A DNA stretch of 63,205 nucleotides, counting the filler, from a bacterium (GTDB lineage Bacteria > JALSQH01), in the NCBI GenBank assembly GCA_027004335.1. It is 11 parts of 11 records of this genome, joined end to end, with 100 filler letters (N's around TTAATTAATTAA, not from the genome) between each part and the next. Parts side by side here need not be neighbours in the genome. Positions count along the whole stretch, not along the records: positions 48,283 to 54,765 come from JALTID010000235.1; 10 more parts are not named here. One strand, written 5' to 3'. Of this stretch, positions 19,129-63,205 are shown piece by piece. The position numbers and the translations under genes were made by a program. A model generated the notes under the pieces. It saw nothing but the letters and a program-made list of their open reading frames with translations. It made no database searches and had not been told where the DNA came from. The first letter of the stretch is position 1, and the number at the start of each line of letters is the position of its first letter.

Positions 19129-19228
19129 NNNNNNNNNNNNNNNNNNNNNNNNNNNNNNNNNNNNNNNNNNNNTTAATTAATTAANNNNNNNNNNNNNNNN
19201 NNNNNNNNNNNNNNNNNNNNNNNNNNNN
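19129..19228. other. Artificial contig linker (also at 21398, 28128, 34816, 37065, 39311, 41550, 48183, 54766, 56905)
   Basis: 44 N + TTAATTAATTAA (stops in all six frames) + 44 N, identical at every junction. Confidence 0.98.
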
Positions 19229-46920: not shown

Positions 46921-48182
46921 TTATCTGAACATGTAATTTGAAAACTCAACTAACAGCGTTTCTCTCATCTCAGGGGGCAATATGTTCATAACTTCATTTA
47001 CAGGTGCGAATCTCTCGGGGATCTTACCATCCTCCATTCCTACAAGTTTCATCAGATTTTCAATTACCTCAGGGGTAAACTCAAGAGATTCTCCACCGGC
47101 AAAAAGTCCCCCCGCCTTCTCAAGAAGGGTTCCTGATGGAAGTTTCTTTGCATCCTCAATGGCAACTTTAAGATCCTTTAGAAATTCATCCATATGAAAT
47201 ACATTGGAGTAATTAATTGAGAGGTGTATACTTTCTTTTATCCCCGCATATGAGAGAACAGGCTGTATATACCAGCCTTTTAGATTCATCTCATCAATTA
47301 TGTGGAAGATATTCACATTATCTGATGTAAAAGCAACAAGGGTCATTTCAGGCTCAGCAATCAATCTGAGGTCAGGATGTTTCTTTACAAAATTTACCAC
47401 TTTTTCCGTAGCTTCCAGTTTTTTCTTCGTAAAATCAAGATAACGCTCGAGTCCCACATACTGAAGAGTAGCCCAGGCAGCAGCTAACGGTCCTGTACTC
47501 TTGGTGCTCTGGATCGTATTATTGATCATGGTGTAGCCAGTCCAGCTGGCACATGCGAAGATCTGATGTTTTCTCAATTCCTTATTTTTGTAAAGTACAA
47601 CTGAAGCACCTTTTGGGGTGTAGGCGTATTTGTGGAGATCCATGGAGATGGATGTAACTCCATCTACAGAAAAATCAAACGGGGGAACATCTCTACCAAG
47701 CTTTCTCATTAGAGGAAGTAGAAATCCCCCCATACAGGCATCAGTATGAAAGAGGATCTCCTTTTCCTTCGCTATGGCAGCCATCTCTTCAATAGGATCA
47801 ATTATTCCATATGCGTAACTTGGAGCTGAACCAACTATCAGAATCGTGTTATCCGTTATCGCCTCCCTGAGTTGATTTAGATCCGCTTTTAAATTTTCAT
47901 CAACCCCTATGGTCTTAACCTTTACACCAAGATAATGACCGGCCTTGTGAAAAGCTGCATGAGCCGTAACAGGAACCAGGACTTCAGGCTCTTTTATATC
48001 AGGCCTTTTTTCTCTCATATAATTTCTTGCTGTTTTAACAGCTAAAATTATACTTTCCGTACCACCACTGGTGAAATTTCCAGAAACATTTTCATCTCCG
48101 CCAAGATGAGCAGCAGCAAATGAGATTATATCATTTTCCATTTTTAATATGCTTGGATAAACTGTAAAATCCAGTGCATTTT
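46921..48182 (-). CDS. Group II PLP enzyme, sphingosine-1-phosphate lyase-like (5' truncated)
   Basis: NALD..YP, TSGGTESI, AHAAFHKA, HTDACMGG and DLHKYAYTPKG motifs. Confidence 0.85.
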
Positions 48183-48282: not shown

Positions 48283-48409
48283 AGCAGCAAGCCTTATTAA
48301 AATACCTGAGATGAAGTCTTATGAAAAAATAGAGGATAGAACTCTGGTCTTGATAGATTTGTCTAAAAAAGCGATAAAGCAGATATGTGATTTTGTGAAC
48401 TGGATCCTT
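48283..48409 (+). repeat. 127-nt exact copy of 63079-63205 (assembly k-mer overlap)
   Basis: AGCAGCAAGCC...GAACTGGATCCTT present at both contig ends. Confidence 0.95.
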
Positions 48410-48481
48410 ATAGATAAACTTGATGAAGAGAAAGCTGGATATGAAAAAGCAGAAGATAAGAAAATCTATAATAACAAATAA
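48283..48481 (+). pseudogene. C-terminal part of the truncated SDH/Clp-fold serine protease that starts at 62969
   Basis: The reading frame continues through the overlap ...VNWILIDKLDEEKAGYEKAEDKKIYNNK*, TAA at 48479-48481. Confidence 0.7.
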
Positions 48482-48495
48482 AAAATGGAGGAACT

Positions 48496-49480
48496 ATGGA
48501 AGTAAAGATTGTGAAAAAGGAAAATATCAAGTTGAGTAACAGAGATGAGAGGATACTTGAAAAGAAACTGGAAAAGCTTGAGAAAATCCTGGGAAAATTT
48601 GGTGCAAACAGTGAATCTACACTAAAAATTGAGATTAATCAGAGCAGTAAGAGAAAAGATTTTCTTTTGAAGGCTTATCTGCACTTAATGGGAAATATTG
48701 ACATTGTGGCTTCCAACAATCATTCTCAGCTTTCCTTTGCCATTGATGGGCTTTTTAAATCTCTTCTAAAAGAGATCAAGAGAAAAAAGGAAAAAATCAT
48801 AGAATCTCACAGGATTGAAAAAGAAGAGAAATTAGCGTATCTTATGAGCAGGGTTTCCCCGGAAGCTCAGAAAACCCTGAAAGATCTCCGTCCAGATCTA
48901 ATAAAATTTGCCAGAAGAATGGCTGTTGCTCATCTCCTGAATGATATGGAAAGCCTGGAAATGGTAGATGTTGATGAAATTGTTGGTGAAGCTATTAAGC
49001 GATCCACAGATGAAGGGCTATTTAAATCTTTTAGTGCCAATAAGAAATTACTTTATCAGAAGATTTCTGAAATTCTTAAGGAAAGAATCGAATCTCTGAC
49101 ACAGTCCTCTGAGGAGGAAGTCAGTATTGAGGAAGATATTCCTCTTGAACCTCCTGAGGAGGAAGTTTCTGATCTTGGCAGTGAAANNNNNNNNNNATGC
49201 ATGGCTAAAACTTGAGGATCTCATCCCTGCTGTAAATGCTGAGGGTGAACTTGAAGATGTACCTGATCTAACTGCCATAAAAGAAGAGATTTCTGAAAGA
49301 ATAAAGGGAATACTTCCAGAATTTTCCCCTGTGGAGAGAAAAATTCTTGCCCTTTTCATATTTGATGAGTTTGAACCTTATGAGATCGCTATGATTTTGA
49401 ATAAGAAAACAGAAGATGTTAGAGAGATTCTGATAAGATCACTTAAAAAACTTTTTAAGGAGTTATCAGGAGAGAGATGA
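48496..49480 (+). CDS. HPF/RaiA (S30AE) domain fused to a sigma70-like C-terminal region; one gene split by a 10-N gap
   Basis: N-term: ERILEKKLEKLEK, three strands, LSFAIDGLFKSLLKEIKR (HPF fold); C-term: FSPVERKILALFIFDEFEPYEIAMIL...VREILIRSLKKL (region 4 HTH); GGAGG RBS. Confidence 0.7.
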
Positions 49481-50811
49481 AAAAGAAGTTTTTGCTTTTT
49501 AGTGTCATATTACTGCTAATTATGAGTAGTTGTGGGAATAAAAAGAAAAGTAATAGTGAAGAGGTGTATCTTTCTACTTCCTTTCCGATGCTAACTTATT
49601 CATTGGATGTTCCTTCTGATGGTGCGTATTATCTTTCAGTTTCAATTCACGGGGATAATTTTGCGTGGAACAGATCCTCCTGTCCTTCAGTGGTGATTGA
49701 TGTTTTCCGAAGCAGGAATGTATGGGCTGGTTCTCTAATTCTCTGGGATCCTAATTTTGAGTATACCCTGTTTTTAGGTGATCTTAAAAAAGGTTCAGAA
49801 AGTTTAACCTTTAAATTTTCTCCAGAAAAGTCTCCATGTAGTGATGCAAAAATTGAAATTAATAAGCTGCAACTTGTTAAGTTTTCCGGTATCTCAGAAG
49901 CATGCATCGCAAATGTACCTTACCTCCTTGGTTATAAAAAAACCCTTACTCTTGATGGGAAAGATTTTCCCTATAACACAATGTCTGATCTACCCCTTTT
50001 TTGGGTTTGTAAGAAGGAGGGGGAAAGATTGGAATATATTCTTTACTATTCAAATGAAGATGGTGGAACCGGGGTTTTTCCTGGTGTGTTAATGTATACA
50101 TGGGGGAGAGTAGCAGATATTGAAAATGCATTTACTGTGGATTTAGGAAGTGATAAGGAGTATATGAGAGACAACGAAACTGAGGATACCCTTTTTCAGG
50201 GAGAGAATTACCTCGGTCATCCCCTTTTGATGGTTTCTCCCGAGGATCATGGGCTTGTGACCGAGGGGAAAATAGAGGATGATACCAAACAGTTGCTTTT
50301 TGCTCTGCCTGTATATCCGGCAGTGAACTCTGCTCCTACGAGAGAAGATTACCTTGATATGGAACCCTGGACCTATCTTATAATGGAATGGGAGATGGAG
50401 AGAGAGGGAAAAATAACAACTGAAGAATCAAAACTCAGTGATCAGTGTGACTTTCTCGCTCCTCTTGATTATTATCTTTACCTTGATCTTTATATTTCTG
50501 ACGAAACAAAGATAGCAATGGATGTGAAACTCTCCAGCGGAGATGAAATTACAAATAACTCCTCGGGGTTGAGCTGGAATTTTTCAGGGTGGAAAAGGGT
50601 GGTTTTGAAATTACCTGAGGAGGTAAAATTGAAAAACATAGAAGAGATCCGCATGGTAAATTTAGGTGATACTAAAGTAAAAGTAGAAATAGGCAAGCTC
50701 TTTTATCTTAACAGAGATTTCTCTACTCTTCATTACATAGTTCCTTCCAATTCCCCTATCTCTTCAGAGTTATCACCTCATGAAGATTGGTTACTTCATC
50801 CTATCAGGTGA
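49477..50811 (+). CDS. Hypothetical lipoprotein
   Basis: Lipobox MSSC; ATGA overlap with the upstream gene; YSNEDGGT...WGR..DIE motif. Confidence 0.65.
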   Translation: MKKKFLLFSVILLLIMSSCGNKKKSNSEEVYLSTSFPMLTYSLDVPSDGAYYLSVSIHGDNFAWNRSSCPSVVIDVFRSRNVWAGSLILWDPNFEYTLFLGDLKKGSESLTFKFSPEKSPCSDAKIEINKLQLVKFSGISEACIANVPYLLGYKKTLTLDGKDFPYNTMSDLPLFWVCKKEGERLEYILYYSNEDGGTGVFPGVLMYTWGRVADIENAFTVDLGSDKEYMRDNETEDTLFQGENYLGHPLLMVSPEDHGLVTEGKIEDDTKQLLFALPVYPAVNSAPTREDYLDMEPWTYLIMEWEMEREGKITTEESKLSDQCDFLAPLDYYLYLDLYISDETKIAMDVKLSSGDEITNNSSGLSWNFSGWKRVVLKLPEEVKLKNIEEIRMVNLGDTKVKVEIGKLFYLNRDFSTLHYIVPSNSPISSELSPHEDWLLHPIR

Positions 50812-52638
50812 AGAAGATTTATTTTCCTCTATTTCGTTCAGATTCTTGGGGAGTTTTATCGTGAAAGTAGTGCCTTCTCCTTTTTTAGATTCAACACCAA
50901 TTTCTCCATAGTGATCTTGAATGATTCTGGAGGAGATACTTAACCCCAGTCCTGTGCCTTTTCCAGGAGGTTTTGTTGTAAAAAAGGGATCAAAAATTCT
51001 GGAAAGGGCTTCTTCAGAGATACCAATCCCATTATCTGAGATTTTAACATATTGAAATTTTGCATCTTCCCATGCTGTTATCTCAATTTTTCCCTTTTCT
51101 CCTTTTTCTGTTACCGCATCAGCTGCATTGTTTAAAAGGTTAATAAATACCTGGGTTAACTGATTTGGGTAGCAGAATATCGGTCTTAATTTTGGGATAT
51201 TCATTTTTATTTCAGGCACATATTTAAGTTTAGTATGAGCAAAGTCTATGGCATCTTTAAGGATTGAAGAGAGGCTTATCATTTCTATTGATCCCTTTTC
51301 AGTTCTGCTGAGTTTTTTGAGTCCAGAAATTATCTTCTTGGTATGTTCAATTCCCTTATTAGACTCAGATATTAGATTTTGAATATCTGAAAGGATAAAA
51401 TCAATTTCTTCATTATTTACGACTTCTTTTATTTTTTCACATGCTCCTTCTCCTGTTAGTTGCCTTATCATTTTTATGCTCCCCCCCATCTCTTCAAGAT
51501 ATTCTTGCATAGAAAAAATATTACTTGTTACATATCCCAGGGCGTTATTCAGTTCGTGAGCTATTCCTGCAGAAAGTTCTCCTATAACAGCGATCTTTTC
51601 TGTTTCAATTAACTTTGATTGAGTTGCTTTCAATTCTTTTATTGTTTTTTCAAGTTCTCTGGTTCTTTCAATTATCTTGTCTTCCAATTCCATATTCATC
51701 TTATCTAGTTCAAGATTGACTTTGACCACTTCTTTTATCAGAGCAGCTCTTTCCAGAGCTCCAGCTATTAGGTTTGAAAGAGATTGAAGAGCAGACAGGT
51801 AACCACCTTGTCTGAATTTTTTTATGTTCTTAATATTGATTAATTCCCCAACTCCGATTACTGTTCCATCAGATTTTAATATGGGGACTGCTACAATATT
51901 TTTAGTGGTGAATCCTGAGCGAGTGTCCACTATCCGTGCAAATCTTGGGTCTGAGTAAAGATCATCTACAATTATTGGTTTCTTATTTGTAAAACACCAT
52001 CCAGCTATCCCCTGATCTTTTTTTAACTTTACCGATTTGACCTTTGGATCTCCTCCCACAGTGGTATAGAAAATAAGTGCATCTTCTTTCTCATCGTAGG
52101 TTAAGATGGTGCTTCCTTCACACTGAAATATCGTTTTGACTGAAGTGAGGACATTTTTTAGTATTATTTCTTTTTCCATAGCAGAATTGATCTGGTTGGA
52201 TGTTTCTAAAAGGAGATTAAGAAGCTGGATTTTTTCCCTTAGATTTTCAGTGAGCCTCTCGTTTTCTTTTAAGATTTTTAGCCGGTTAAGGGCATTTTTT
52301 GTGACAAACTCCACTTCATGAGGATCAGGGGGCTTGGGGATAAAGTCAATAACTCCAGATCTGAGTGCCTTTAAAATAGTGTCTCTGTCCTTTTTAGCTG
52401 AAATAAGAACAACCCCGGTAGATGGAAATCTCTTCCTTAATGAGTCCAGATGATCAAAGGCATTTTCACCGGGGAAAAGAATATCAAGAAGAATTAAATC
52501 TATCTGAGTACCTTCCAGAATTTCCCACATTTCTTTAAGAGAAAGTGCTGTAAAAATTTCATATTTAAAAGGGATAAGAATATCCTTCAGAAATTCTACC
52601 ATATATTTTTCATCATCTACAATCAGAATTGATGGCAT
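50791..52638 (-). CDS. Hybrid sensor histidine kinase (REC-GAF-HisKA-HATPase)
   Basis: LIVDD/LLD/KP receiver; GIAGW GAF; AHELNN, NLLNNA, DNGIG and [15 protein letters not shown]. Confidence 0.92.
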
Positions 52639-53159
52639 TATTCTTCCTCTGTATCATCAAGGATAATTCTACCTTCTTCGTCCTTTTTAACTTTTGTGAT
52701 ACCTGGATATTCTTTTTCCAGTGAATCAATTAGATTTTTTGCTTTTTCAAGTTGATCAAGTAACTTCCTGTGTTCCCTTTCAAGCCTCAGGTGTTCAGAT
52801 GCCAATCTCAGAGAAAGCCTTAACTCTTCATCATCCCATGGTTTTAAGAAAAATCTATAAATCTCTCCTTCATTTATTGCTTCTGCGGCGACTTCAAGAT
52901 CTGCCTGACCCGTGAGCATTATTCTTATGGTGTCAGGATAATTTTCTCTGATCCATTTCAGGAATTCAAGCCCGTTTGTCCCTGGCATTTTAAAATCGGA
53001 GACAACTATGTCAAATGGTTTCTCATAAAATTTGTCAGCGGCCTCTTTTGCACTGGTAGCCGTTTCAATTTCGTATGGTTCTTTCCGCAGTGATCTTCTC
53101 AATGCACTGAGTATATTTTCCTCATCGTCAACCAGAAGTAACCTTAATTTTTTCTCCAT
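52638..53159 (-). CDS. Response regulator (receiver plus short coiled tail)
   Basis: LLVDDE, SDFKMP, MLTG and KPW motifs. Confidence 0.9.
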   Translation of the reverse strand: MEKKLRLLLVDDEENILSALRRSLRKEPYEIETATSAKEAADKFYEKPFDIVVSDFKMPGTNGLEFLKWIRENYPDTIRIMLTGQADLEVAAEAINEGEIYRFFLKPWDDEELRLSLRLASEHLRLEREHRKLLDQLEKAKNLIDSLEKEYPGITKVKKDEEGRIILDDTEEE

Positions 53160-53175: not shown

Positions 53176-54597
53176 TTAAAATCTCATTATCACTGTTTTA
53201 ATCTCAGTCATTTCTTCAACAGCGTACTTCAATCCCTCTCTCCCCAATCCTGAATCTTTTATTCCTCCGTAGGGCATATTGTCCACCCTGAAGGTAGGAT
53301 AGTCGTTAATTATAACTCCTCCCACATCAAGATTTTCAATAGCGTAGTGCGTATTTTTTAAATCATTTGTGAAAATGCCTGCCTGAAGTCCATACTGGGA
53401 GTCATTTACCTTATCAATTGCCTCTTCAAAAGCATCAAATGGTTCTGTTATGACTACCGGCCCAAAAACTTCCTCACAGTAAACGGGCAGATCTTTTTTA
53501 ACATCAGAGATAATGGTTGCTTCAATTATATTTCCTCTCCGCTTTGCACCTGTGATGATTATTGCACCATTCTCAATAGCATCACTTATCCATCTCTCAA
53601 CTTTATCTGCTGCTCTCTCGTCAATAAGAGGACCGAAAACTGTGTCTGGGTCCATAGGATCACCAATTTTTAATTTTTCTACTTCTCTTTTAAATTTTTC
53701 TAAAAACTTATCATATATATTTTTATGGACATATATTCTCTGAACAGCTATGCAGATCTGTCCTGCATTGGCGAAGCCACCAATGGCAAGTCTCCATGCT
53801 GTAAAATCCAGATTTGCACTTTCATCCACCACAGCTCCTGCGTTCCCCCCAAGTTCAAGAAGTATTTTTTTCTTCCCCGCTATGTTTTTAAGGTACCAGC
53901 CAACTCTGGGGCTACCTGTGAAAGAAAGAAGCTTAAATCTTTCATCTCTTACCATCTTTTCGGCTCTCTCCACGGTGGTAGGAACGACATTAACCATCCC
54001 CGCAGGGGCTCCAGCTTTTTCAATTATCTCAGCGAGTATGAGAGATGTAAAAGGTGCCTGGGGTGGGGGCTTGAGAACGACACTGTTTCCAGCTGCGATT
54101 GCAGGAGCTATTTTGTGCGCCACGAGATTCAAAGGAAAATTGTAAGGTGTGATGGCGATTATTGGCCCCAGTGGGAACCTCTTATAAAATCCTCTGTAAT
54201 TTTTTGTATTTTCCTGAATATCCACGGGAAAAACTTCCCCTCCGATTCTCTTTGCTTCCTCAGCGGCAAATGTAAAAGTGACTGTGGCTCTGTTAACTTC
54301 CCCCAACGCGTATTGCCATGGTTTTCCCGATTCCTCCACTATCATTCTGGCCAGTTCCTCTTTTCGTTCCTCAATCCCTTTTTTGATGTTTTCAAGGATC
54401 TTTGATTTCTCATAAGCTGAGAGCTTTTTTGTCGTTTTGAACGCATCAACAGCTGATTGAATCGCATCTTCTACATCTTTTTCTGAAGCAATAGGTATGT
54501 AGCCGATGACTTCCCCGTTGTAGGGATTGATGTTTTCTTCATATTCCTCCGTTGTTCTCCACTCGCCATTGATATATGTTCTTTTCTTCTCAGGCAT
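53176..54597 (-). CDS. NAD(P)-dependent aldehyde dehydrogenase
   Basis: PYNFP, FTGS, LELGGN, GQIC and EEVFGP motifs. Confidence 0.93.
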   Translation of the reverse strand: MPEKKRTYINGEWRTTEEYEENINPYNGEVIGYIPIASEKDVEDAIQSAVDAFKTTKKLSAYEKSKILENIKKGIEERKEELARMIVEESGKPWQYALGEVNRATVTFTFAAEEAKRIGGEVFPVDIQENTKNYRGFYKRFPLGPIIAITPYNFPLNLVAHKIAPAIAAGNSVVLKPPPQAPFTSLILAEIIEKAGAPAGMVNVVPTTVERAEKMVRDERFKLLSFTGSPRVGWYLKNIAGKKKILLELGGNAGAVVDESANLDFTAWRLAIGGFANAGQICIAVQRIYVHKNIYDKFLEKFKREVEKLKIGDPMDPDTVFGPLIDERAADKVERWISDAIENGAIIITGAKRRGNIIEATIISDVKKDLPVYCEEVFGPVVITEPFDAFEEAIDKVNDSQYGLQAGIFTNDLKNTHYAIENLDVGGVIINDYPTFRVDNMPYGGIKDSGLGREGLKYAVEEMTEIKTVIMRF

Positions 54598-57004: not shown

Positions 57005-57362
57005 AACAAGAATGACCCGGACCTCTTTAATTTCTACTCTTGATCAGCAGTATGTAACTACCGCAAAAGCTAAGGGATTGCCATTCTGGCAAATAGTTGT
57101 AGAGCATGCTCTTAGAAATGCCCTGATCCCGGTGGTAACCATAATGGGTTTGCAATTTGGTGCACTGCTTTCAGGAGCTGTAATAACCGAGACCATATTC
57201 AGCTGGCCCGGGATAGGAAGACTCCTGATTGAAGCTATTCAGACAAGAGATTATCCACTGGTTCAGGGGGTAGTACTTGTGATTGCACTTACCTATGTTA
57301 TTGTTAACACCCTTGTTGACTTTACCTACTCCTTGATTGACCCAAGAGTGAGGCTTGGCTGA
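57005..57362 (+). CDS. Peptide/nickel ABC transporter permease (OppB/DppB), C-terminal part
   Basis: [26 protein letters not shown] and IDPRVR motifs. Confidence 0.9.
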
Positions 57363-58168
57363 TGAAAAAGCTTTTCTGGTCTGGAATTTTTTTCATTTTC
57401 ATTGTTCTTATTTTTGCTACTTTAGGTCCTCTTTTTTCTCCATATTCTCCTTCACACATTGATCTTTCAGCGGGTCTAAAAGGACCATCTTTCTCCCATC
57501 CGTTTGGTGTTGATAAGTTAGGAAGGGATATTTTCACCCTTGTTGCTTATGGGGCAAGGGTTTCTCTTCTTGTATCAACCATTGCAGTGGGAATATCTGT
57601 TGTTGTTGGCGTAGCTGCTGGAGGAATTTCAGGTTATTTTGGTGGGATAATAGATGAATTGTTTATGAGGCTGGTGGATATTCTCCTTGCCTTTCCCGGC
57701 ATTCTTCTGGCAATTGCCCTTGCAGCGGCCCTTGGTCCAAGTTTGGAAAATATAATAATTGCGCTATCAGCCATGGGATGGGTTGGATATGCAAGACTTG
57801 TGAGAGGACAGGTCCTATCTATTAGAGAGGAGGAATATGTACTTTCAGCCAGAGCCATTGGAATGCCATGGTGGAGAATAATCCTGTTCTACATAATTCC
57901 CCAGGCTCTTCCACCAGTGCTTGTGCAGATGACCTTTGGCATGGCGGGCACCATTCTCACTGAAGCGTCGCTTTCGTTTTTGGGGCTCGGCCCTCAGGAT
58001 ATCCCCAGCTGGGGAAGGATAATAAGCGATGGAATTGAATACCTTCAGCAGGCTCCCCACATTGCTCTTTTTCCCGGGTTTATGATAATGCTTACTGTTA
58101 TGTCTTTCAATTTTATCGGGGATTGGCTGAGAGAAAAATTATCCGTTACAGGGGGTGAAGAAATATGA
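57362..58168 (+). CDS. Peptide/nickel ABC transporter permease (OppC/DppC)
   Basis: HPFGVDKLGRD, ARLVRGQ, EASLSFLGLG and NFIGDWLR motifs. Confidence 0.92.
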   Translation: MKKLFWSGIFFIFIVLIFATLGPLFSPYSPSHIDLSAGLKGPSFSHPFGVDKLGRDIFTLVAYGARVSLLVSTIAVGISVVVGVAAGGISGYFGGIIDELFMRLVDILLAFPGILLAIALAAALGPSLENIIIALSAMGWVGYARLVRGQVLSIREEEYVLSARAIGMPWWRIILFYIIPQALPPVLVQMTFGMAGTILTEASLSFLGLGPQDIPSWGRIISDGIEYLQQAPHIALFPGFMIMLTVMSFNFIGDWLREKLSVTGGEEI

Positions 58169-60558
58169 AGAATTTTTTGGTCTTTCTTTTACTTTTCCTT
58201 TTAAGCTGCGCTCCGACGCAAAATGAAGAAAGTTTTAAAATCGTGGGAAATATTTCCCTTAATAGTGAAAATGGAGTTCTCAGGATTTTTGCAGGCGGTA
58301 GTGAAATTGCGGATATTACCGGAACAGTTGCAATTAATAAAAAAATTTATGCATATTTTTTTACAGGATACACAAAATTTGAGGAAGAGTATCTCTCTGA
58401 AGATAAAGGGGGGCTTGTCTCCCTTTCACCACGAGTAGCTCTGTGGAAGAATGGGATAAAGGTAGAATTTTCACCCGCAGGGGGAAGTATATTAAAGGCA
58501 GAAGTATCTTCACCTAAGGGTAATAGTGTTAGATTAATTTTCAGGTGCAGAGATATAGATCACTTTTTAGGCTTTGGTGCCCAGACATATCTCACTGATC
58601 AAAAAGGGGAAGCTTTTAATATCTGGGTAAGTGAAGAAGGAATCAGAAAAATCATGGAGAGTGATACCAATCCCCTCTGGTTCGTTGTGGGTTCCAGACA
58701 TACCTCTTACTACCCGCTGCCATATTTCTATGATCCTGCAGGGTTTGGTTTTCTTGTTGATACTTCCTACAGGAGTAAATTCAACCTCTGTAAAGGTGAC
58801 GAGAATCACTGGAGTGTTGAGGTGGATGCTACTACTTTTGACCTCTATTTCATAGTTGGGAAAACCCCAAAGGAGGTAATAGAGGAATACACCACGCTTA
58901 CAGGTAAGCCCATATTACCACAGAGATGGTATTTTTCCCCGTGGAATGATGCAATTGGTGGGAAGGGTAATGTGGAGCAGGTGGCAAACATTCTGAGGTC
59001 AAATGGAATACCCTCTACAGCTATCTGGACCGAGGACTGGGGAGGAGAGGCAACAAGAGATGGGGACCTGTATAGATTCGTTTATAACTGGGATGTGGGA
59101 AGGGACCTCTATCCAGATTTTGAAACTATGGTTACATGGTTGCATAAAGAGGGGTTCCATTTTTTAGTTTACTTTAATTCTTTCCTGGATCCTAACTCAC
59201 GCGTGTGGAATGAAGTACCGGGAAATTTTTTTGTTATGGGTAAAGAGGAAAAACCATATAATATTTTTCTTCCCTCTCTTACATGGGGTGGTCTGCTTGA
59301 TCTTACCAATCAGGATGCGTGGAACTGGGCAGAGGAAAAGATGTTAGATGCCATTAAGCTGGGTGTTAACGGCTGGATGGCGGATTATGGTGAGTGGTTA
59401 CCCTATGATAGTATGAGCTCAAAAGGCCCGGGGAGTTATTATCATAATCTTTATCCTCTGCTATGGCACAGCTTGAATAGAGACGTGATGGATAAGTATA
59501 CGGAAAGAAAAAATTTTGTTTATTTTACCAGGTCAGGATATATTGGAGATCAGGCTCTCACACCTGTCTACTGGCCAGGGGATCAGAGTACGGATTTTTC
59601 CATTGATGATGGTTTTCCCACGGCAATTGCCGTTGGAATCAATGTAGGTTGGAGCGGAACAGTTATGTACGGGTCTGATATAGCTGGATATATGTCCATA
59701 GGGAATCCACCTTCTGATAAGGAACTATTTCTAAGATGGACAGAATTTGGTGCTTTTTCCCCTGTGATGAGGACCCACCACGGATATCTTGCCTTTGCCA
59801 ACTGGAATTTTCACAGGGATAATTACACTCTTCAGTGGTACAAATTTTACGCAATATGGCACCAGAGGCTTTTCCCCTATCTCTACAGTGAGGCGATCTC
59901 CGCGGGTGCTGAGGGTATTCCACTTATAAGACATATGTATATGGAATTCCCTGAGGATCAAAATACAATTTCTCTTCAGACTCAGTATATGCTTGGTCCA
60001 TTTTTGCTGGTTGCTCCAGTGGAGGAGAGAGGAGCAGTACATAAAATAACTTATTTCCCCCGGGGCAGGTGGTACAATTTCTGGGATGGATCGGTAATAG
60101 AGTCAAAGGGTCAATGGCTTGAAGTAAATGCGCCTCTTGAGAGGATCCCTGTCTATGTAAGAGAGGGTGGAATAATAGAGTTGCTTCCCTCTGATATTGA
60201 TACTATTGAAGCCCCCCCGGGTGCTGATTCTTCAGTTGTTACCCTTGATATGAGAGATGACTGGAGGGAAGTTCATTTTTATAAAGGAAAGAACCTCACA
60301 TGGAAGGACTACGAAGGGAATGTTTTTTATAATTACCTTACTGGTGTACTTGATACTAAAAGTTTAACTCTGAATTCTGAGACTCTTCCTTTATGTGAAA
60401 ATAATACACCTTCCTGTTATTTTGAAGAAAATGGTGAAATCACTATTCGTGTTAGAAGCAATGGAGAGGAGCCCGTTTTAATAAAAGATGATAGGGGCAA
60501 CAAGCTAAAGATAGAAACTGCAAAAACAAGATGGTGGGAGATTAAGATTTATCAGTAA
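58165..60558 (+). CDS. GH31 glycosidase lipoprotein, sulfoquinovosidase (YihQ)-like
   Basis: Lipobox LLSC; WTEDW, GWMADYGEWLP, WPGDQ, SDIAGY and MRTHHG motifs. Confidence 0.85.
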   Translation: MKNFLVFLLLFLLSCAPTQNEESFKIVGNISLNSENGVLRIFAGGSEIADITGTVAINKKIYAYFFTGYTKFEEEYLSEDKGGLVSLSPRVALWKNGIKVEFSPAGGSILKAEVSSPKGNSVRLIFRCRDIDHFLGFGAQTYLTDQKGEAFNIWVSEEGIRKIMESDTNPLWFVVGSRHTSYYPLPYFYDPAGFGFLVDTSYRSKFNLCKGDENHWSVEVDATTFDLYFIVGKTPKEVIEEYTTLTGKPILPQRWYFSPWNDAIGGKGNVEQVANILRSNGIPSTAIWTEDWGGEATRDGDLYRFVYNWDVGRDLYPDFETMVTWLHKEGFHFLVYFNSFLDPNSRVWNEVPGNFFVMGKEEKPYNIFLPSLTWGGLLDLTNQDAWNWAEEKMLDAIKLGVNGWMADYGEWLPYDSMSSKGPGSYYHNLYPLLWHSLNRDVMDKYTERKNFVYFTRSGYIGDQALTPVYWPGDQSTDFSIDDGFPTAIAVGINVGWSGTVMYGSDIAGYMSIGNPPSDKELFLRWTEFGAFSPVMRTHHGYLAFANWNFHRDNYTLQWYKFYAIWHQRLFPYLYSEAISAGAEGIPLIRHMYMEFPEDQNTISLQTQYMLGPFLLVAPVEERGAVHKITYFPRGRWYNFWDGSVIESKGQWLEVNAPLERIPVYVREGGIIELLPSDIDTIEAPPGADSSVVTLDMRDDWREVHFYKGKNLTWKDYEGNVFYNYLTGVLDTKSLTLNSETLPLCENNTPSCYFEENGEITIRVRSNGEEPVLIKDDRGNKLKIETAKTRWWEIKIYQ

Positions 60559-60948
60559 CTAAAAGGATGGCAGGAGGTGTTTTTCGTATTTTTTTATATA
60601 AAAAATACCTCTTGCAGCAAGCTCTTCAAATCTATAAATTTCCACTTTTACTTTATATATGTGATCTTTTTCTTCTGTGAGGCGGGCTGTAGCCCTGATT
60701 CTCTCTCCAATTCTTACAGGGAGAAGGAAATCTATTTCCATTTTTTCCACAAAGAGGAAATTCTCATTAACAGCAAGTGTTGCTGCATATTCTGCTGGGG
60801 CTAAAAGAAAATTGTTATTTACCATACCTCTTTCATCTACTGCCATTTCTGAAAAAGTGAAAAATTCAACCTCAGCATATCCTTTCTCAATTATTACTGG
60901 TTCCCCAACCCACTGTCGCGAAGAATGGAGTCTGACTTTTTGTTCCAT
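60559..60948 (-). CDS. Hotdog-fold thioesterase-like protein
   Basis: EMAVDERGMV...AEYAATLAVN...FLLPVRIGE. Confidence 0.7.
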   Translation of the reverse strand: MEQKVRLHSSRQWVGEPVIIEKGYAEVEFFTFSEMAVDERGMVNNNFLLAPAEYAATLAVNENFLFVEKMEIDFLLPVRIGERIRATARLTEEKDHIYKVKVEIYRFEELAARGIFYIKKYEKHLLPSF

Positions 60949-61083
60949 AATTGTACCTCTTTGAAGAAATTATATTTCATGTGGAGTTAACTTCAACCCT
61001 TCCTTTTTCAATTTCCCTGATTATGTTATTATATAAGAACAGAGATAGTGATGTAATGATAAAGGATAAGTCGGAGGTACAGT

Positions 61084-62232
61084 ATGATTGTTCTTAATGA
61101 AGAGATTAGAAGGCTACGGCAGTTTGTTAGAAGCGAACATCCTCTAATCAATTTCTATCTTTCTATTAATCCTATCAGATTCAAGGAGAAAGAATGGAAG
61201 ATAAAATTGAAGGATCTTGTTAAGGAAGCCAAAGAAAATTTGAGACTTGAGGCGAAATACCCCCGTGCAGAGATCAAGAGAATTTACAGTGACATGGATT
61301 ATATGGAAAGAGAGATAAATTCTATTGACTTTTCAGGTGCAAAGTCCATAGTGTGGTTTTACAGCAGTAGCCTGGCTCTTGATGTCCTGTTTAAAATTCC
61401 TGAAGAATTACCAAGGAATGATTTTATAACTGTTTCGGAATTACCCAACTATCTCCTCCTTGATGAGGTCATGTCCAATTTTAAGAGGTATCTCCTGATC
61501 CTTTTTGATAAAGAAAGAGTCAGGTTTCTTGAATATTTTATGAAGAAAATAAGAGAGTATATGAACATCAGAGAAAGAATTCACAGGGTCGAGGATTTTA
61601 ATGATTATGGGGCTGTTGAGAATAGGATCAAACGGCATGTGATGTACCACACATACAGGCATTTTAAAAATATAATGCTTCTTGCAAAGCAGATAATAGA
61701 GGAAGAAGAAATTGATGGTGTTATACTTGCTTCCAGTGCAAATTATCTTTCTATGTTAAACGAGAATCTTGATTATGAAATTAAAAACAGGCTCGTTAGA
61801 GAGATAACTGGCCTTGATATAAATGCTGGGAGAGAAGAAATATTAAAGAAGATTGAGTCTATTGAAAAGGACCTGAAAAGGGAAGAGGAGGAAGAACTTT
61901 TCAGGAAATTAGAGGAGAATCTCGGTACAGATGGGAAGGCAACAGCAGGGATATCCGATTCCCTTAACGCATTGTATGAGGGTAAGGTAGAAACACTGCT
62001 TATTTCTCCATCTTTTAATGAGGAAGGATATGCATGTCCCTCATGCTATTATGTTTCTCTAAACATGGAGAAGTGTCCTTACTGCGGAAACGAAATGGAA
62101 AAGCTGAATAATGTACTAAACAAAATATATGATCTTGCCATCCTGAATAGTTCAAGGGTGAAACATATTAATTTCCTCACAGAAAAATTGGAAGAAAGGG
62201 GAGAAGTTGCTGCTTTGTTGAGATTCAGATAA
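61084..62232 (+). CDS. Bacterial aeRF1/pelota-like protein (baeRF family) with a C-terminal Zn ribbon
   Basis: GKATAG...LYEGKVETLLI...CPSC...CPYCG...GEVAALLRF is eRF1 domain 3; GGAGG RBS. Confidence 0.85.
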   Translation: MIVLNEEIRRLRQFVRSEHPLINFYLSINPIRFKEKEWKIKLKDLVKEAKENLRLEAKYPRAEIKRIYSDMDYMEREINSIDFSGAKSIVWFYSSSLALDVLFKIPEELPRNDFITVSELPNYLLLDEVMSNFKRYLLILFDKERVRFLEYFMKKIREYMNIRERIHRVEDFNDYGAVENRIKRHVMYHTYRHFKNIMLLAKQIIEEEEIDGVILASSANYLSMLNENLDYEIKNRLVREITGLDINAGREEILKKIESIEKDLKREEEEELFRKLEENLGTDGKATAGISDSLNALYEGKVETLLISPSFNEEGYACPSCYYVSLNMEKCPYCGNEMEKLNNVLNKIYDLAILNSSRVKHINFLTEKLEERGEVAALLRFR

Positions 62233-62248
62233 GGGGCTTATGGCATAG

Positions 62249-62959
62249 ATGTTTCCTTTAAAAGATGATATTCCTTCGCGAACCTTTCCCTGGGTTAATT
62301 ATTCAATAATTATCTTAAATTTTATTGTGTTCTTCTATGAGATTTCGCTGGGGAGTCATTTTCAGATATTTCTTGCACAATATGGTTTCGTTCCCCTTAG
62401 ATTTAGTGTGGGAATAGAACGGCATCTTCCCTTTTTCACTCTCATTCTTCCAGTTTTTTATTCTATGTTTCTTCATGGAGGCTGGTTTCATATTATAGGA
62501 AATATGTGGTTCCTCTATATTTTTGGGGACAATGTTGAGGATCGCCTGGGCCATTTTCATTACATAATTTTTTATCTTGTATCAGGTTGTATTGCCGTGT
62601 TTACCCAGTACATAATAAATCCTTATACCAATATCCCTCTTATTGGTGCAAGTGGAGCTATTGCAGGGGTTTTAGGTGCCTACATGGTTTTTTATCCTTA
62701 CGCCCGGGTGCTGACATTGCTAATAATTTTTATTTTTATTGATATTGTATATCTCCCTGCGATCCTGTATCTTTTCCTCTGGTTTTTTATACAATTTCTG
62801 TATGGAACTTCTTCAGCTCTCTACGCCTCTGCTACTCGCGGGGGAGTTGCATGGTGGGCGCATGTTGGTGGTTTTGTATTTGGTGTTATATGGGCAATTA
62901 TTATAAGATTAAGAGGTGGAAATGAAAAAGATTATCTTCATGAAATACTGCCATGGTAG
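62249..62959 (+). CDS. Rhomboid intramembrane serine protease
   Basis: MFLHGGWFHIIGNM, GASGAIAG and AWWAHVGG motifs. Confidence 0.93.
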   Translation: MFPLKDDIPSRTFPWVNYSIIILNFIVFFYEISLGSHFQIFLAQYGFVPLRFSVGIERHLPFFTLILPVFYSMFLHGGWFHIIGNMWFLYIFGDNVEDRLGHFHYIIFYLVSGCIAVFTQYIINPYTNIPLIGASGAIAGVLGAYMVFYPYARVLTLLIIFIFIDIVYLPAILYLFLWFFIQFLYGTSSALYASATRGGVAWWAHVGGFVFGVIWAIIIRLRGGNEKDYLHEILPW

Positions 62960-62968
62960 GAGGTCAGG

Positions 62969-63205
62969 ATGGATCATGCGATGAGCGGTGGAACTCCTAT
63001 TGCTCTTGCGGCTGATGAGATATATATGGATCACAATGCAGTCATGGGGCCAGTTGATCCGCAGCTTGGTGATATGCCAGCAGCAAGCCTTATTAAAATA
63101 CCTGAGATGAAGTCTTATGAAAAAATAGAGGATAGAACTCTGGTCTTGATAGATTTGTCTAAAAAAGCGATAAAGCAGATATGTGATTTTGTGAACTGGA
63201 TCCTT
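62969..63205 (+). pseudogene. SDH-family Clp-fold serine protease fragment (continues at 48410)
   Basis: AGGAGG RBS, then MDHAMSGGTPIALAADEIYMDHNAVMGPVDPQLG; joined ORF is only 102 aa. Confidence 0.7.

Follow-up and report, generated by a model that had tools for sequence, protein, structure and literature searches.

A deep-branching HPF-SigE chimera encoded with an aeRF1-like factor in the bacterial lineage JALSQH01

Introduction

Divergent HPF isoforms in which a Csp, SigE or CBS domain takes the place of the missing dimerisation domain have recently been described in a preprint (bioRxiv 10.1101/2025.11.04.686544), where a SigE-HPF fusion is named on the E. coli plasmid pEc78. According to the accessible parts of that text, the chimeric hpf genes often lie beside Balon; the same parts contain no experiment, function or linker motif for the SigE type and mention neither heat resistance nor the heat-resistance island LHR/tLST. 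The designation 'HPF-SigE' is cited from the preprint in PMC13392368, whose accessible text locates the Csp chimera HPFcold in the 30S decoding centre by cryo-EM. Moreover, a recurring baeRF-1/HPF neighbourhood has been reported (Burroughs and Aravind 2019, PMC6514570); in the accessible text of that paper 'HTH' is absent and 'sigma' occurs in the references only. Likewise, the accessible text of the paper that reclassified the extracytoplasmic function (ECF) sigma factors (PMC7826278) does not mention S30, ribosomes or hibernation. Here we describe a gene of the HPF-SigE class at positions 48496-49480 on the plus strand of a 63,205-nucleotide stretch of DNA, referred to as the window, from a bacterium of the lineage JALSQH01 (GenBank assembly GCA_027004335.1).

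The locus is one gene for a chimeric protein of about 329 amino acids (aa). Like the published HPF-SigE isoforms, the protein joins an HPF N-terminal domain to a SigE/ECF-like module that replaces the dimerisation domain, and its family shares the scattered phyletic spread with horizontal transfer that the accessible part of the preprint gives for them. A frequent aeRF1-type (Balon-like) neighbour is another common trait, represented here by a baeRF_family10 gene two genes upstream, both in the window's own assembly (G000) and in one other genome of the same family (G001). Unlike the published isoforms, which occur where canonical HPF is also present, the chimera is found here in a lineage in which no canonical HPF was found in G000 or G001. 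HPFcold (Coxiella burnetii CBU_0020), as far as its description is accessible, similarly combines an HPF N-terminal domain with a foreign, nucleic-acid-related C-terminal domain, but the C-terminal part of the window protein is a sigma module of about 220 aa joined via a long helix. With long HPF, short HPF and RaiA/YfiA/pY, the protein shares the fold and basic charge of the N-terminal domain; it differs from long HPF in having no PF16321 domain and from yfiA in scoring below the equivalog cut-off, and it does not lie in an rpoN/hpf operon. The sigma2 and sigma4 folds are shared with EcfG-type ECF sigma factors and with the sigma-like domain of PhyR, and the closest structure to the sigma part is, for both of our models, an EcfG-type RpoE in complex with NepR. 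What sets the window protein apart from them is a region 2 so divergent that Sigma70_r2 misses it, a long and conserved linker, an HPF domain in front of the module, and the lack of both a receiver domain and an anti-sigma gene alongside. Three points go beyond what is in print, as far as the sources are readable: the apparent absence of canonical HPF, the FYQPD...LED linker and the membership of orf11, a gene of the heat-resistance island.

One gene interrupted by an assembly gap

G000 comprises 1.5 Mb in 262 contigs and is 80% complete, while G001 is 97% complete; both assemblies are fragmented. The fusion is present in both, which are the genomes of the phylum that we examined. In the window, the gene is broken by a scaffold gap of 10 N (Table 1). 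The 5′ piece runs from the ATG at 48496 to the gap and encodes 230 aa, and the 3′ piece is open in another frame to the TGA at 49478-49480 and encodes 93 aa. Taken at face value, the different frames on either side of the 10 N would fit a pseudogene or a pair of distinct genes, one for a short HPF and one for a sigma fragment, that seem fused only through the gap. We searched the 5′ piece against 5.8 billion clustered proteins and found three proteins, each of 329 aa, with 58-66% identity to the 5′ piece at 100% query coverage; one of them is encoded in G001. All three run on unbroken, and their C-terminus aligns with the 3′ piece of the window.

At the position of the gap, the intact relatives read GSE-ILDFYQPD-AWLKLED. 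The A before the gap fits the first base of an Ile codon and the AT after it the last two bases of an Asp codon; therefore about 21 nt are truly missing and not 10, and the change of frame is an artefact of the arbitrary length of the placeholder. The gap thus falls on the FYQPD core of the linker motif. Since the relatives are continuous open reading frames (ORFs), the bases flanking the gap agree with the expected codons, and the identical architecture is seen in 72 full-length family members, we regard two genes or a pseudogene as extremely improbable.

Table 1. Features of the fusion gene and its operon in the window
Feature	Position	Strand	Evidence or remark
GGAGG ribosome-binding site	48487-48491	+	4 nt 5′ of ATG 48496; read from sequence
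HPF/RaiA (S30AE) domain, residues 1-~105	48496-48810	+	PF02482; structural superposition of ortholog model
Long connecting helix and divergent sigma region 2, residues ~106-200	48811-49095	+	TIGR02937, ortholog model
Acidic sigma2-sigma4 linker with FYQPD...LED motif, interrupted by gap	49096-49261	+	Family conservation and charge
10-N gap	49187-49196		Inside contig C235; hides ~21 nt (8 codons less 3 bases); only short N run in window
Sigma region 4 (HTH) and stop codon	49262-49480	+	Sigma70_r4 and TIGR02937 below cut-offs; Sigma70_r4_2 in family
Predicted lipoprotein, 444 aa	49477-50811	+	ATG overlaps fusion TGA (ATGA)
aeRF1-like protein (baeRF_family10), first operon gene	61084-62232	+	Contig C239; PF18854 54.3 bits, above cut-off
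Rhomboid intramembrane protease	62249-62959	+	G001 ortholog PF01694 E 9.8e-35
SDH-type (ClpP-like) serine protease remnant, 5′ part	62969-63205	+	Runs off C239
SDH-type protease remnant, 3′ part	48283-48481	+	Start of C235; 48283-48409 repeats 63079-63205

The N-terminal HPF/RaiA domain

The Pfam family Ribosomal_S30AE (PF02482) matches residues 6-101 of the 5′ piece with 32 bits (E 2.1e-07; gathering score 23.7). By its profile matches, the N-terminal part is an S30AE-domain protein and no canonical HPF equivalog. We then examined a predicted structure. For the G001 ortholog P0005, which is 58% identical to the 5′ piece of the window, an AlphaFold2 model built on 72 relatives reached a mean pLDDT of 85.7 and a pTM of 0.64, with low confidence at residues ~205-250, in the linker. 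Residues 1-98 of this model superpose on V. cholerae HPF (4hei_B) with Z 13.8 and rmsd 1.6 Å over 90 aligned residues (VIA-align), and the top Foldseek matches are all HPF/RaiA/pY chains (best E 1.3e-05, 8uu7_w). The model thus shows a beta-alpha-beta-beta-beta-alpha fold that is superposable on solved HPFs. A profile of the three relatives, searched against the sequences of solved structures, gave nothing significant (best E 0.07), so the folds are recognised through predicted models only and not via such a profile search. The net charge of the domain is positive in 59 of the 72 members, with a median of +5 and a value of +6 in P0005.

No PF16321 dimerisation domain of long HPFs was found in the fusion or anywhere in G000 or G001. 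In these fragmented assemblies there was also no other match to S30AE (PF02482), TIGR00741 or PF16321, at 97% completeness for G001 and 80% for G000. With no canonical HPF found in G000 or G001, the chimera probably takes the role of HPF in this lineage. A second S30AE match in G001 (contig C20, 20.1 bits) belongs to a Lys/Glu-rich coiled-coil lipoprotein and was rejected as spurious.

The sigma module and its acidic linker

On the intact G001 ortholog, TIGR02937 (sigma70-ECF) covers profile positions 6-165 of 165 and scores 50.1 bits against a cut-off of 42.9. The window copy, interrupted by the gap, yields 33.2-33.6 bits, below the same cut-off, with the score of 33.6 bits obtained over profile positions 94-164. 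Its 3′ piece matches Sigma70_r4 (E 0.0015, 18.5 bits, cut-off 24.1) and Sigma70_r4_2 (13.4 bits, cut-off 25.7), in both cases below the curated cut-off, and PhyR_sigma-like matches the sigma-like part weakly (13.3 bits). No Sigma70_r2 match was obtained in the window piece at E up to 1, and no receiver domain (Response_reg) was matched in the fusion protein. In the P0005 model, residues 121-329 align with the ECF sigma factor RpoE of a NepR complex (5uxx_C; Z 12.3, rmsd 3.8 Å, 150 aligned), followed by CnrH, SigW and PhyR with Z 10-11.6, while sigma4 alone fits region 4 of SigF and SigR with rmsd 0.9-1.4 Å. Both sigma2 and sigma4 folds are thus present in the model. In addition, 70 of the 72 members retain R284 in the 'LP..WR' motif of sigma4, and 63 retain D163 in the 'DVVDEA' helix of sigma2.

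The most conserved segment of the family is the acidic linker and not a folded domain. Its net charge is negative in all 72 members (median -11), and its median length is 53 aa. P236 is kept in 68 members, D237 in 63 and D244 in 67, which places them among the most conserved columns of the protein; the consensus reads roughly VS.EEDVPE.PPEEEVSTLGDEILDFYQPDEDLRLEDVLPD, and the FYQPD...LED motif is near-invariant. Together, these data describe a complete but divergent ECF-type sigma module, with sigma2, a conserved acidic linker and sigma4, in the position that the dimerisation domain occupies in long HPFs.

A preliminary description of this locus had read it as an HPF-like N-terminus, a helical middle region, an acidic linker and a region-4-like HTH, in an ORF split only by the gap. 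The unbroken relatives and the codons at the gap bear out the last point, the S30AE match above its gathering score places the N-terminus as proposed, the quoted acidic string is present in the window, and the HTH was recovered, with all its matches on the window piece below curated cut-offs. The middle helices, also present, turn out to be a divergent sigma-70 region 2, given the coverage of TIGR02937 on the G001 ortholog. The reading as HPF plus region 4 therefore holds for its two ends, but the fused part is larger than had been stated, namely a whole ECF-type sigma module.

Family and distribution

We searched 1.84 billion cluster representatives with HMMER, using the profile of the three close relatives, and matched 137 representatives at E up to 0.001, of which 30 remained at E up to 1e-10. 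The 72-member set used throughout consists of the 69 matches of 300-400 aa together with P0003, P0004 and P0005, shorter matches being left out. At E up to 0.01, Ribosomal_S30AE is found in 59 of these members, Sigma70_r4_2 in 61, PhyR_sigma-like in 37 and Sigma70_r2 in one. In a 13-member alignment (A4), every relative matches TIGR02937 (best E 7.9e-20) as well as the NCBIfam PhyR family NF006623 (best E 4.1e-08), and no fusion-specific NCBIfam model is among the matches of this subset. Named members carry either 'RNA polymerase sigma factor' or 'ribosome-associated translation inhibitor RaiA'.

The distribution was obtained by pattern scans over one genome per species with two queries. The first gave 35 loci from Acidobacteriota, Methylomirabilota, Binatia, Nitrospirota, Myxococcota, Alpha- and Gammaproteobacteria, including the cultured strains Bosea sp. 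and Thermomonas hydrothermalis. The second gave 100 relatives, of which 80 were kept, with many near-identical copies in Proteobacteria that are not related to each other, namely Citrobacter, Enterobacter, Kluyvera, Pseudomonas, Acinetobacter, Stenotrophomonas and Achromobacter. Near-identical copies of the tLST type were also seen on contigs labelled Kocuria varians, Bacillota, Collinsella, Cloacimonadota and Spirochaetia (L045, L078, L083, L091 and L094); these could reflect very recent transfer, or contamination or mis-binning.

Relation to orf11 of the heat-resistance island

The copy from Citrobacter has a megablast match in 152 of 5426 complete E. coli genomes, at 157 places on chromosomes and 44 on plasmids, and is annotated in E. 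coli as 'hypothetical protein'. In E. coli NCTC9008 the order is an HTH gene, sHSP20, ClpK, a small ORF, the 381-aa gene, Trx-GI, KefB-GI, PsiE-GI, HtpX and an S1C protease, and the Citrobacter copy lies directly after an HdeD-like gene. Since this position matches the island order hdeD-GI, orf11, trx-GI given in the accessible text of PMC8290217, we identify the 381-aa gene of E. coli and Citrobacter as orf11.

The clade of the window and the clade of orf11 align by hhalign over 289 columns, from the N-terminal domain to sigma4, with a probability of 99.05% and E 2.1e-18. No Pfam family exceeds its cut-off on the orf11-type protein. However divergent in sequence, the Citrobacter protein is predicted to share both folds: its model (pLDDT 87, pTM 0.79) matches HPF with Z 14.2 and rmsd 1.4 Å and RpoE with Z 13.1 and rmsd 3.7 Å. 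The two proteins therefore share full-length homology, the same two folds and the acidic FYQ(P/H)D linker; they differ in that orf11 is only about 22% identical, has 381 aa and extends further at the C-terminus. The settings differ as well: orf11 has hdeD-GI and trx-GI on its two sides and sHSP20 and ClpK upstream, and the window gene lies behind baeRF10, rhomboid and a protease remnant. None of the island genes sHSP20, ClpK, HdeD-GI, orf11, Trx-GI and KefB-GI was found on contigs C239 or C235, which carry the operon of the window. We conclude that the window fusion is a deep-branching HPF-SigE member and a distant relative of the tLST orf11.

Deletions of all 13 functional tLST genes have been reported, and seven of the genes were needed for heat or chlorine resistance, orf11 not being among them (PMC8407380, accessible text). 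We also considered whether the fusion is already a standard item of the literature on the heat-resistance island and rejected this, as the accessible texts on P. aeruginosa TLPQC and the tLST reviews never call orf11 a sigma or ribosome protein.

Mechanism and alternative explanations

The preliminary description stated that no function had been characterised for such a fusion. This remains correct in that the orf11 deletions are the only experiment that we found, while the fusion class itself is already in print. The same description proposed a ribosome-binding protein that could be released to act on RNA polymerase or DNA and would thereby sense the state of the ribosome, which is one of several live readings.

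Our preferred reading, to which we give a probability of roughly 0.55, is that the protein is a hibernation chimera that silences ribosomes, uses its sigma module as a second contact and acts as the HPF of the lineage. Upon stress or growth arrest, the basic HPF domain would plug the tRNA/mRNA channel of the 30S subunit, by analogy with HPF, RaiA and HPFcold, and the aeRF1-like partner would take the A site. The sigma-like module with its acidic FYQPD...LED linker would provide the second contact, most likely to the RNA polymerase core, and ribosome silencing would thereby be coupled to stress transcription. The polymerase core is favoured as partner because a linker kept across phyla should have a partner that is just as conserved, and because in ECF holoenzymes the linker between sigma2 and sigma4 threads the polymerase cleft.

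Several observations weigh against this reading. On the ribosome side, the N-terminal domain of the window protein scores 23.1 bits against the cut-off of 40.9 of the NCBIfam yfiA equivalog TIGR00741, and it lacks a net positive charge in 13 of the 72 members. According to the accessible part of the preprint, every genome with a chimera that was analysed there also has a canonical HPF (bioRxiv 10.1101/2025.11.04.686544), and the absence of one here could be due to an assembly gap, G000 being 80% complete and both assemblies fragmented. On the polymerase side, the sigma part fits the holoenzyme sigma-H poorly (5zx2_F, rmsd 26.9 Å), and both models show the closed sigma2/sigma4 arrangement typical of anti-sigma complexes, a form that may partly reflect which structures exist. 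Pfam recognises Sigma70_r2 in a single member, and contacts to the core or the -10 element may accordingly be lost, judging from this divergence. Deletion of orf11 in E. coli did not lower heat or chlorine resistance and left lipid oxidation unchanged (PMC8407380, accessible text); orf11 is thus not a required activator of the island under those conditions. In the literature searched, binding to ribosomes or RNA polymerase is not reported for any member.

Possible but unlikely is that the protein is a working ECF sigma factor, whose HPF-fold domain acts off the ribosome as a built-in autoinhibitory or sensing extension, comparable to N- or C-terminal extensions in other ECF groups, and which activates the neighbouring stress genes. 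It would agree with the TIGR02937 score above the cut-off on the ortholog and the match in all 13 relatives, with the retention of R284 and D163 (70 and 63 of 72), and with the fact that no anti-sigma gene is recognisable adjacent to the fusion, as in one-component ECFs. N-terminal ECF extensions are on record in the accessible text of PMC7826278, and the family has stress and proteostasis neighbours (sHSP20 in at least 11, KefB-like in at least 9 and FtsH in at least 7 of 34 locus clusters, see below). However, an HPF fold (rmsd 1.4-1.6 Å) and a basic charge kept across phyla exceed the needs of an inhibitory lid, and the recurrent link with an aeRF1-like ribosome factor points to the ribosome. 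Both the degenerate region 2, with Sigma70_r2 in 1 of 72 members, and the orf11 deletion in E. coli, after which resistance phenotypes were not reduced (PMC8407380, accessible text), argue against a simple activator role. Improbable in our estimate is a sigma mimic like PhyR, in which the module would capture an anti-sigma-like or stress protein instead of RNA polymerase and the HPF domain would report the state of the ribosome. PhyR_sigma-like is found in 37 of the 72 members and NF006623 in 13 of 13, region 2 is degenerate, and the models align to PhyR-NepR complexes with Z 9.4-10.4 in the closed form; but true ECF models give the better match (best E 7.9e-20 for TIGR02937, 4.1e-08 for the PhyR family), the protein has no receiver domain, and we noticed no small NepR-like gene next to the fusion.

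A bolder proposal, to which we give equally little credence, makes the chimera the only HPF of the phylum, tying hibernating ribosomes to RNA polymerase, with the linker as a switch that releases active sigma. The HPF domain would then occupy the 30S decoding centre next to the aeRF1-like factor, with the sigma module held closed, and the linker would serve RNA polymerase as a docking peptide or else be cut by co-encoded membrane proteases. Candidates would be the rhomboid or the SDH-type protease here and FtsH, HtpX or a DegP-type protease elsewhere; reactivation of the ribosome or stress would free an active sigma factor. If true, this would also account for orf11 being silent in the heat-resistance island of E. 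coli.

In any case, HPF-sigma chimeras unite a part for translation shut-down and a part for transcription initiation in one polypeptide, and if the halves cooperate, one protein would link promoter choice directly to the state of the ribosome. The family includes orf11 of a heat- and chlorine-tolerance island in food-borne and hospital Enterobacteriaceae. The instance in the window adds a deep-branching lineage whose sole HPF may be the chimera, a clean operon that includes an aeRF1-like factor, and a linker motif, sharply conserved, at which experiments can be aimed.

Operon and gene neighbourhood

The window consists of 11 contigs chained by N44-TTAATTAATTAA-N44 spacers, which start at 19129, 21398, 28128, 34816, 37065, 39311, 41550, 48183, 54766 and 56905 (span 19129-57004). 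As a result, genes that flank a spacer are not genomic neighbours. A PLP-dependent decarboxylase-like ORF at 46921-48141, for instance, lies on a different contig and is no genomic neighbour of the fusion, which is on contig C235 (48283-54765). Contig C239 occupies 57005-63205, and its last 127 nt (63079-63205) equal the first 127 nt of C235 (48283-48409) with zero mismatches, which makes C239 and C235 genomic neighbours. In the window, the two contigs are 9 kb apart and in reverse order.

Rebuilt from C239 and C235, the operon has the order baeRF10, rhomboid, protease remnant, fusion and lipoprotein. G001 shows the same order with a full-length protease of 278 aa and the same overlap of fusion and lipoprotein genes. 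The PF18854 match of the aeRF1-like gene lies at G000:C239:4461-4859, and its G001 ortholog scores 60.9 bits for the same family. By sequence, the aeRF1-like protein matched the eRF1 chain 3e20_C (E 1.7e-05) and no Balon chain at E up to 0.01, eRF1 only; the label 'Balon-type' is thus taken from the Pfam family and the wording of the preprint. The G001 protease (L005:5066-5902) matches PF01972 SDH_protease with E 1.4e-126. By comparison, the window remnant of about 102 aa (62969-63205 plus 48410-48481) is without the N-terminal half and about 50 C-terminal residues, and it may be a decaying gene. The 444-aa lipoprotein, whose gene is translationally coupled to that of the fusion, has no Pfam family. 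In the ESM Atlas it falls in unnamed clusters of about 430 aa only, commonest in Acidobacteriota, with scores of 0.90-0.91 and a recognition below the mark. It lies beside the fusion in 2 of the 114 loci compared, in this lineage alone. A scan for promoters and terminators gave no more sites than in shuffles.

Two genes on the minus strand, at 50791-53159, run towards the end of the operon; they encode a hybrid receiver-GAF-histidine kinase of 615 aa and a separate receiver protein of 173 aa. An aldehyde dehydrogenase follows at 53176-54597. In G001 the aldehyde dehydrogenase is directly 3′ of the lipoprotein gene, and the two-component genes are absent there.

For the family as a whole, the 114 loci were grouped by a fusion-protein identity of at least 60%, which gave 34 clusters (Table 2). 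The theme of the neighbourhood across the family is protein quality control, envelope stress and ribosome factors.

Table 2. Recurrent neighbours of the fusion gene among 34 clusters of loci (lower bounds, as flanks of 4-8 kb are often incomplete)
Neighbour	Clusters
sHSP20	at least 11
KefB-like	at least 9
FtsH	at least 7
baeRF10	at least 7
ClpB/ClpK-like	at least 6
Trx-GI-like	at least 6
PsiE-like	at least 6
Rhomboid	at least 6
SDH protease	at least 6
DUF308/HdeD	at least 5

In Bosea, Chelatococcus and their relatives (L027-L029 and L043), the fusion is flanked by the genes for a ClpB/ClpG-like disaggregase of 995 aa and for a DUF308/HdeD-like protein; FtsH is encoded upstream and an SDH-type protease downstream. 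The arrangement looks like an alphaproteobacterial variant of a stress-tolerance island.

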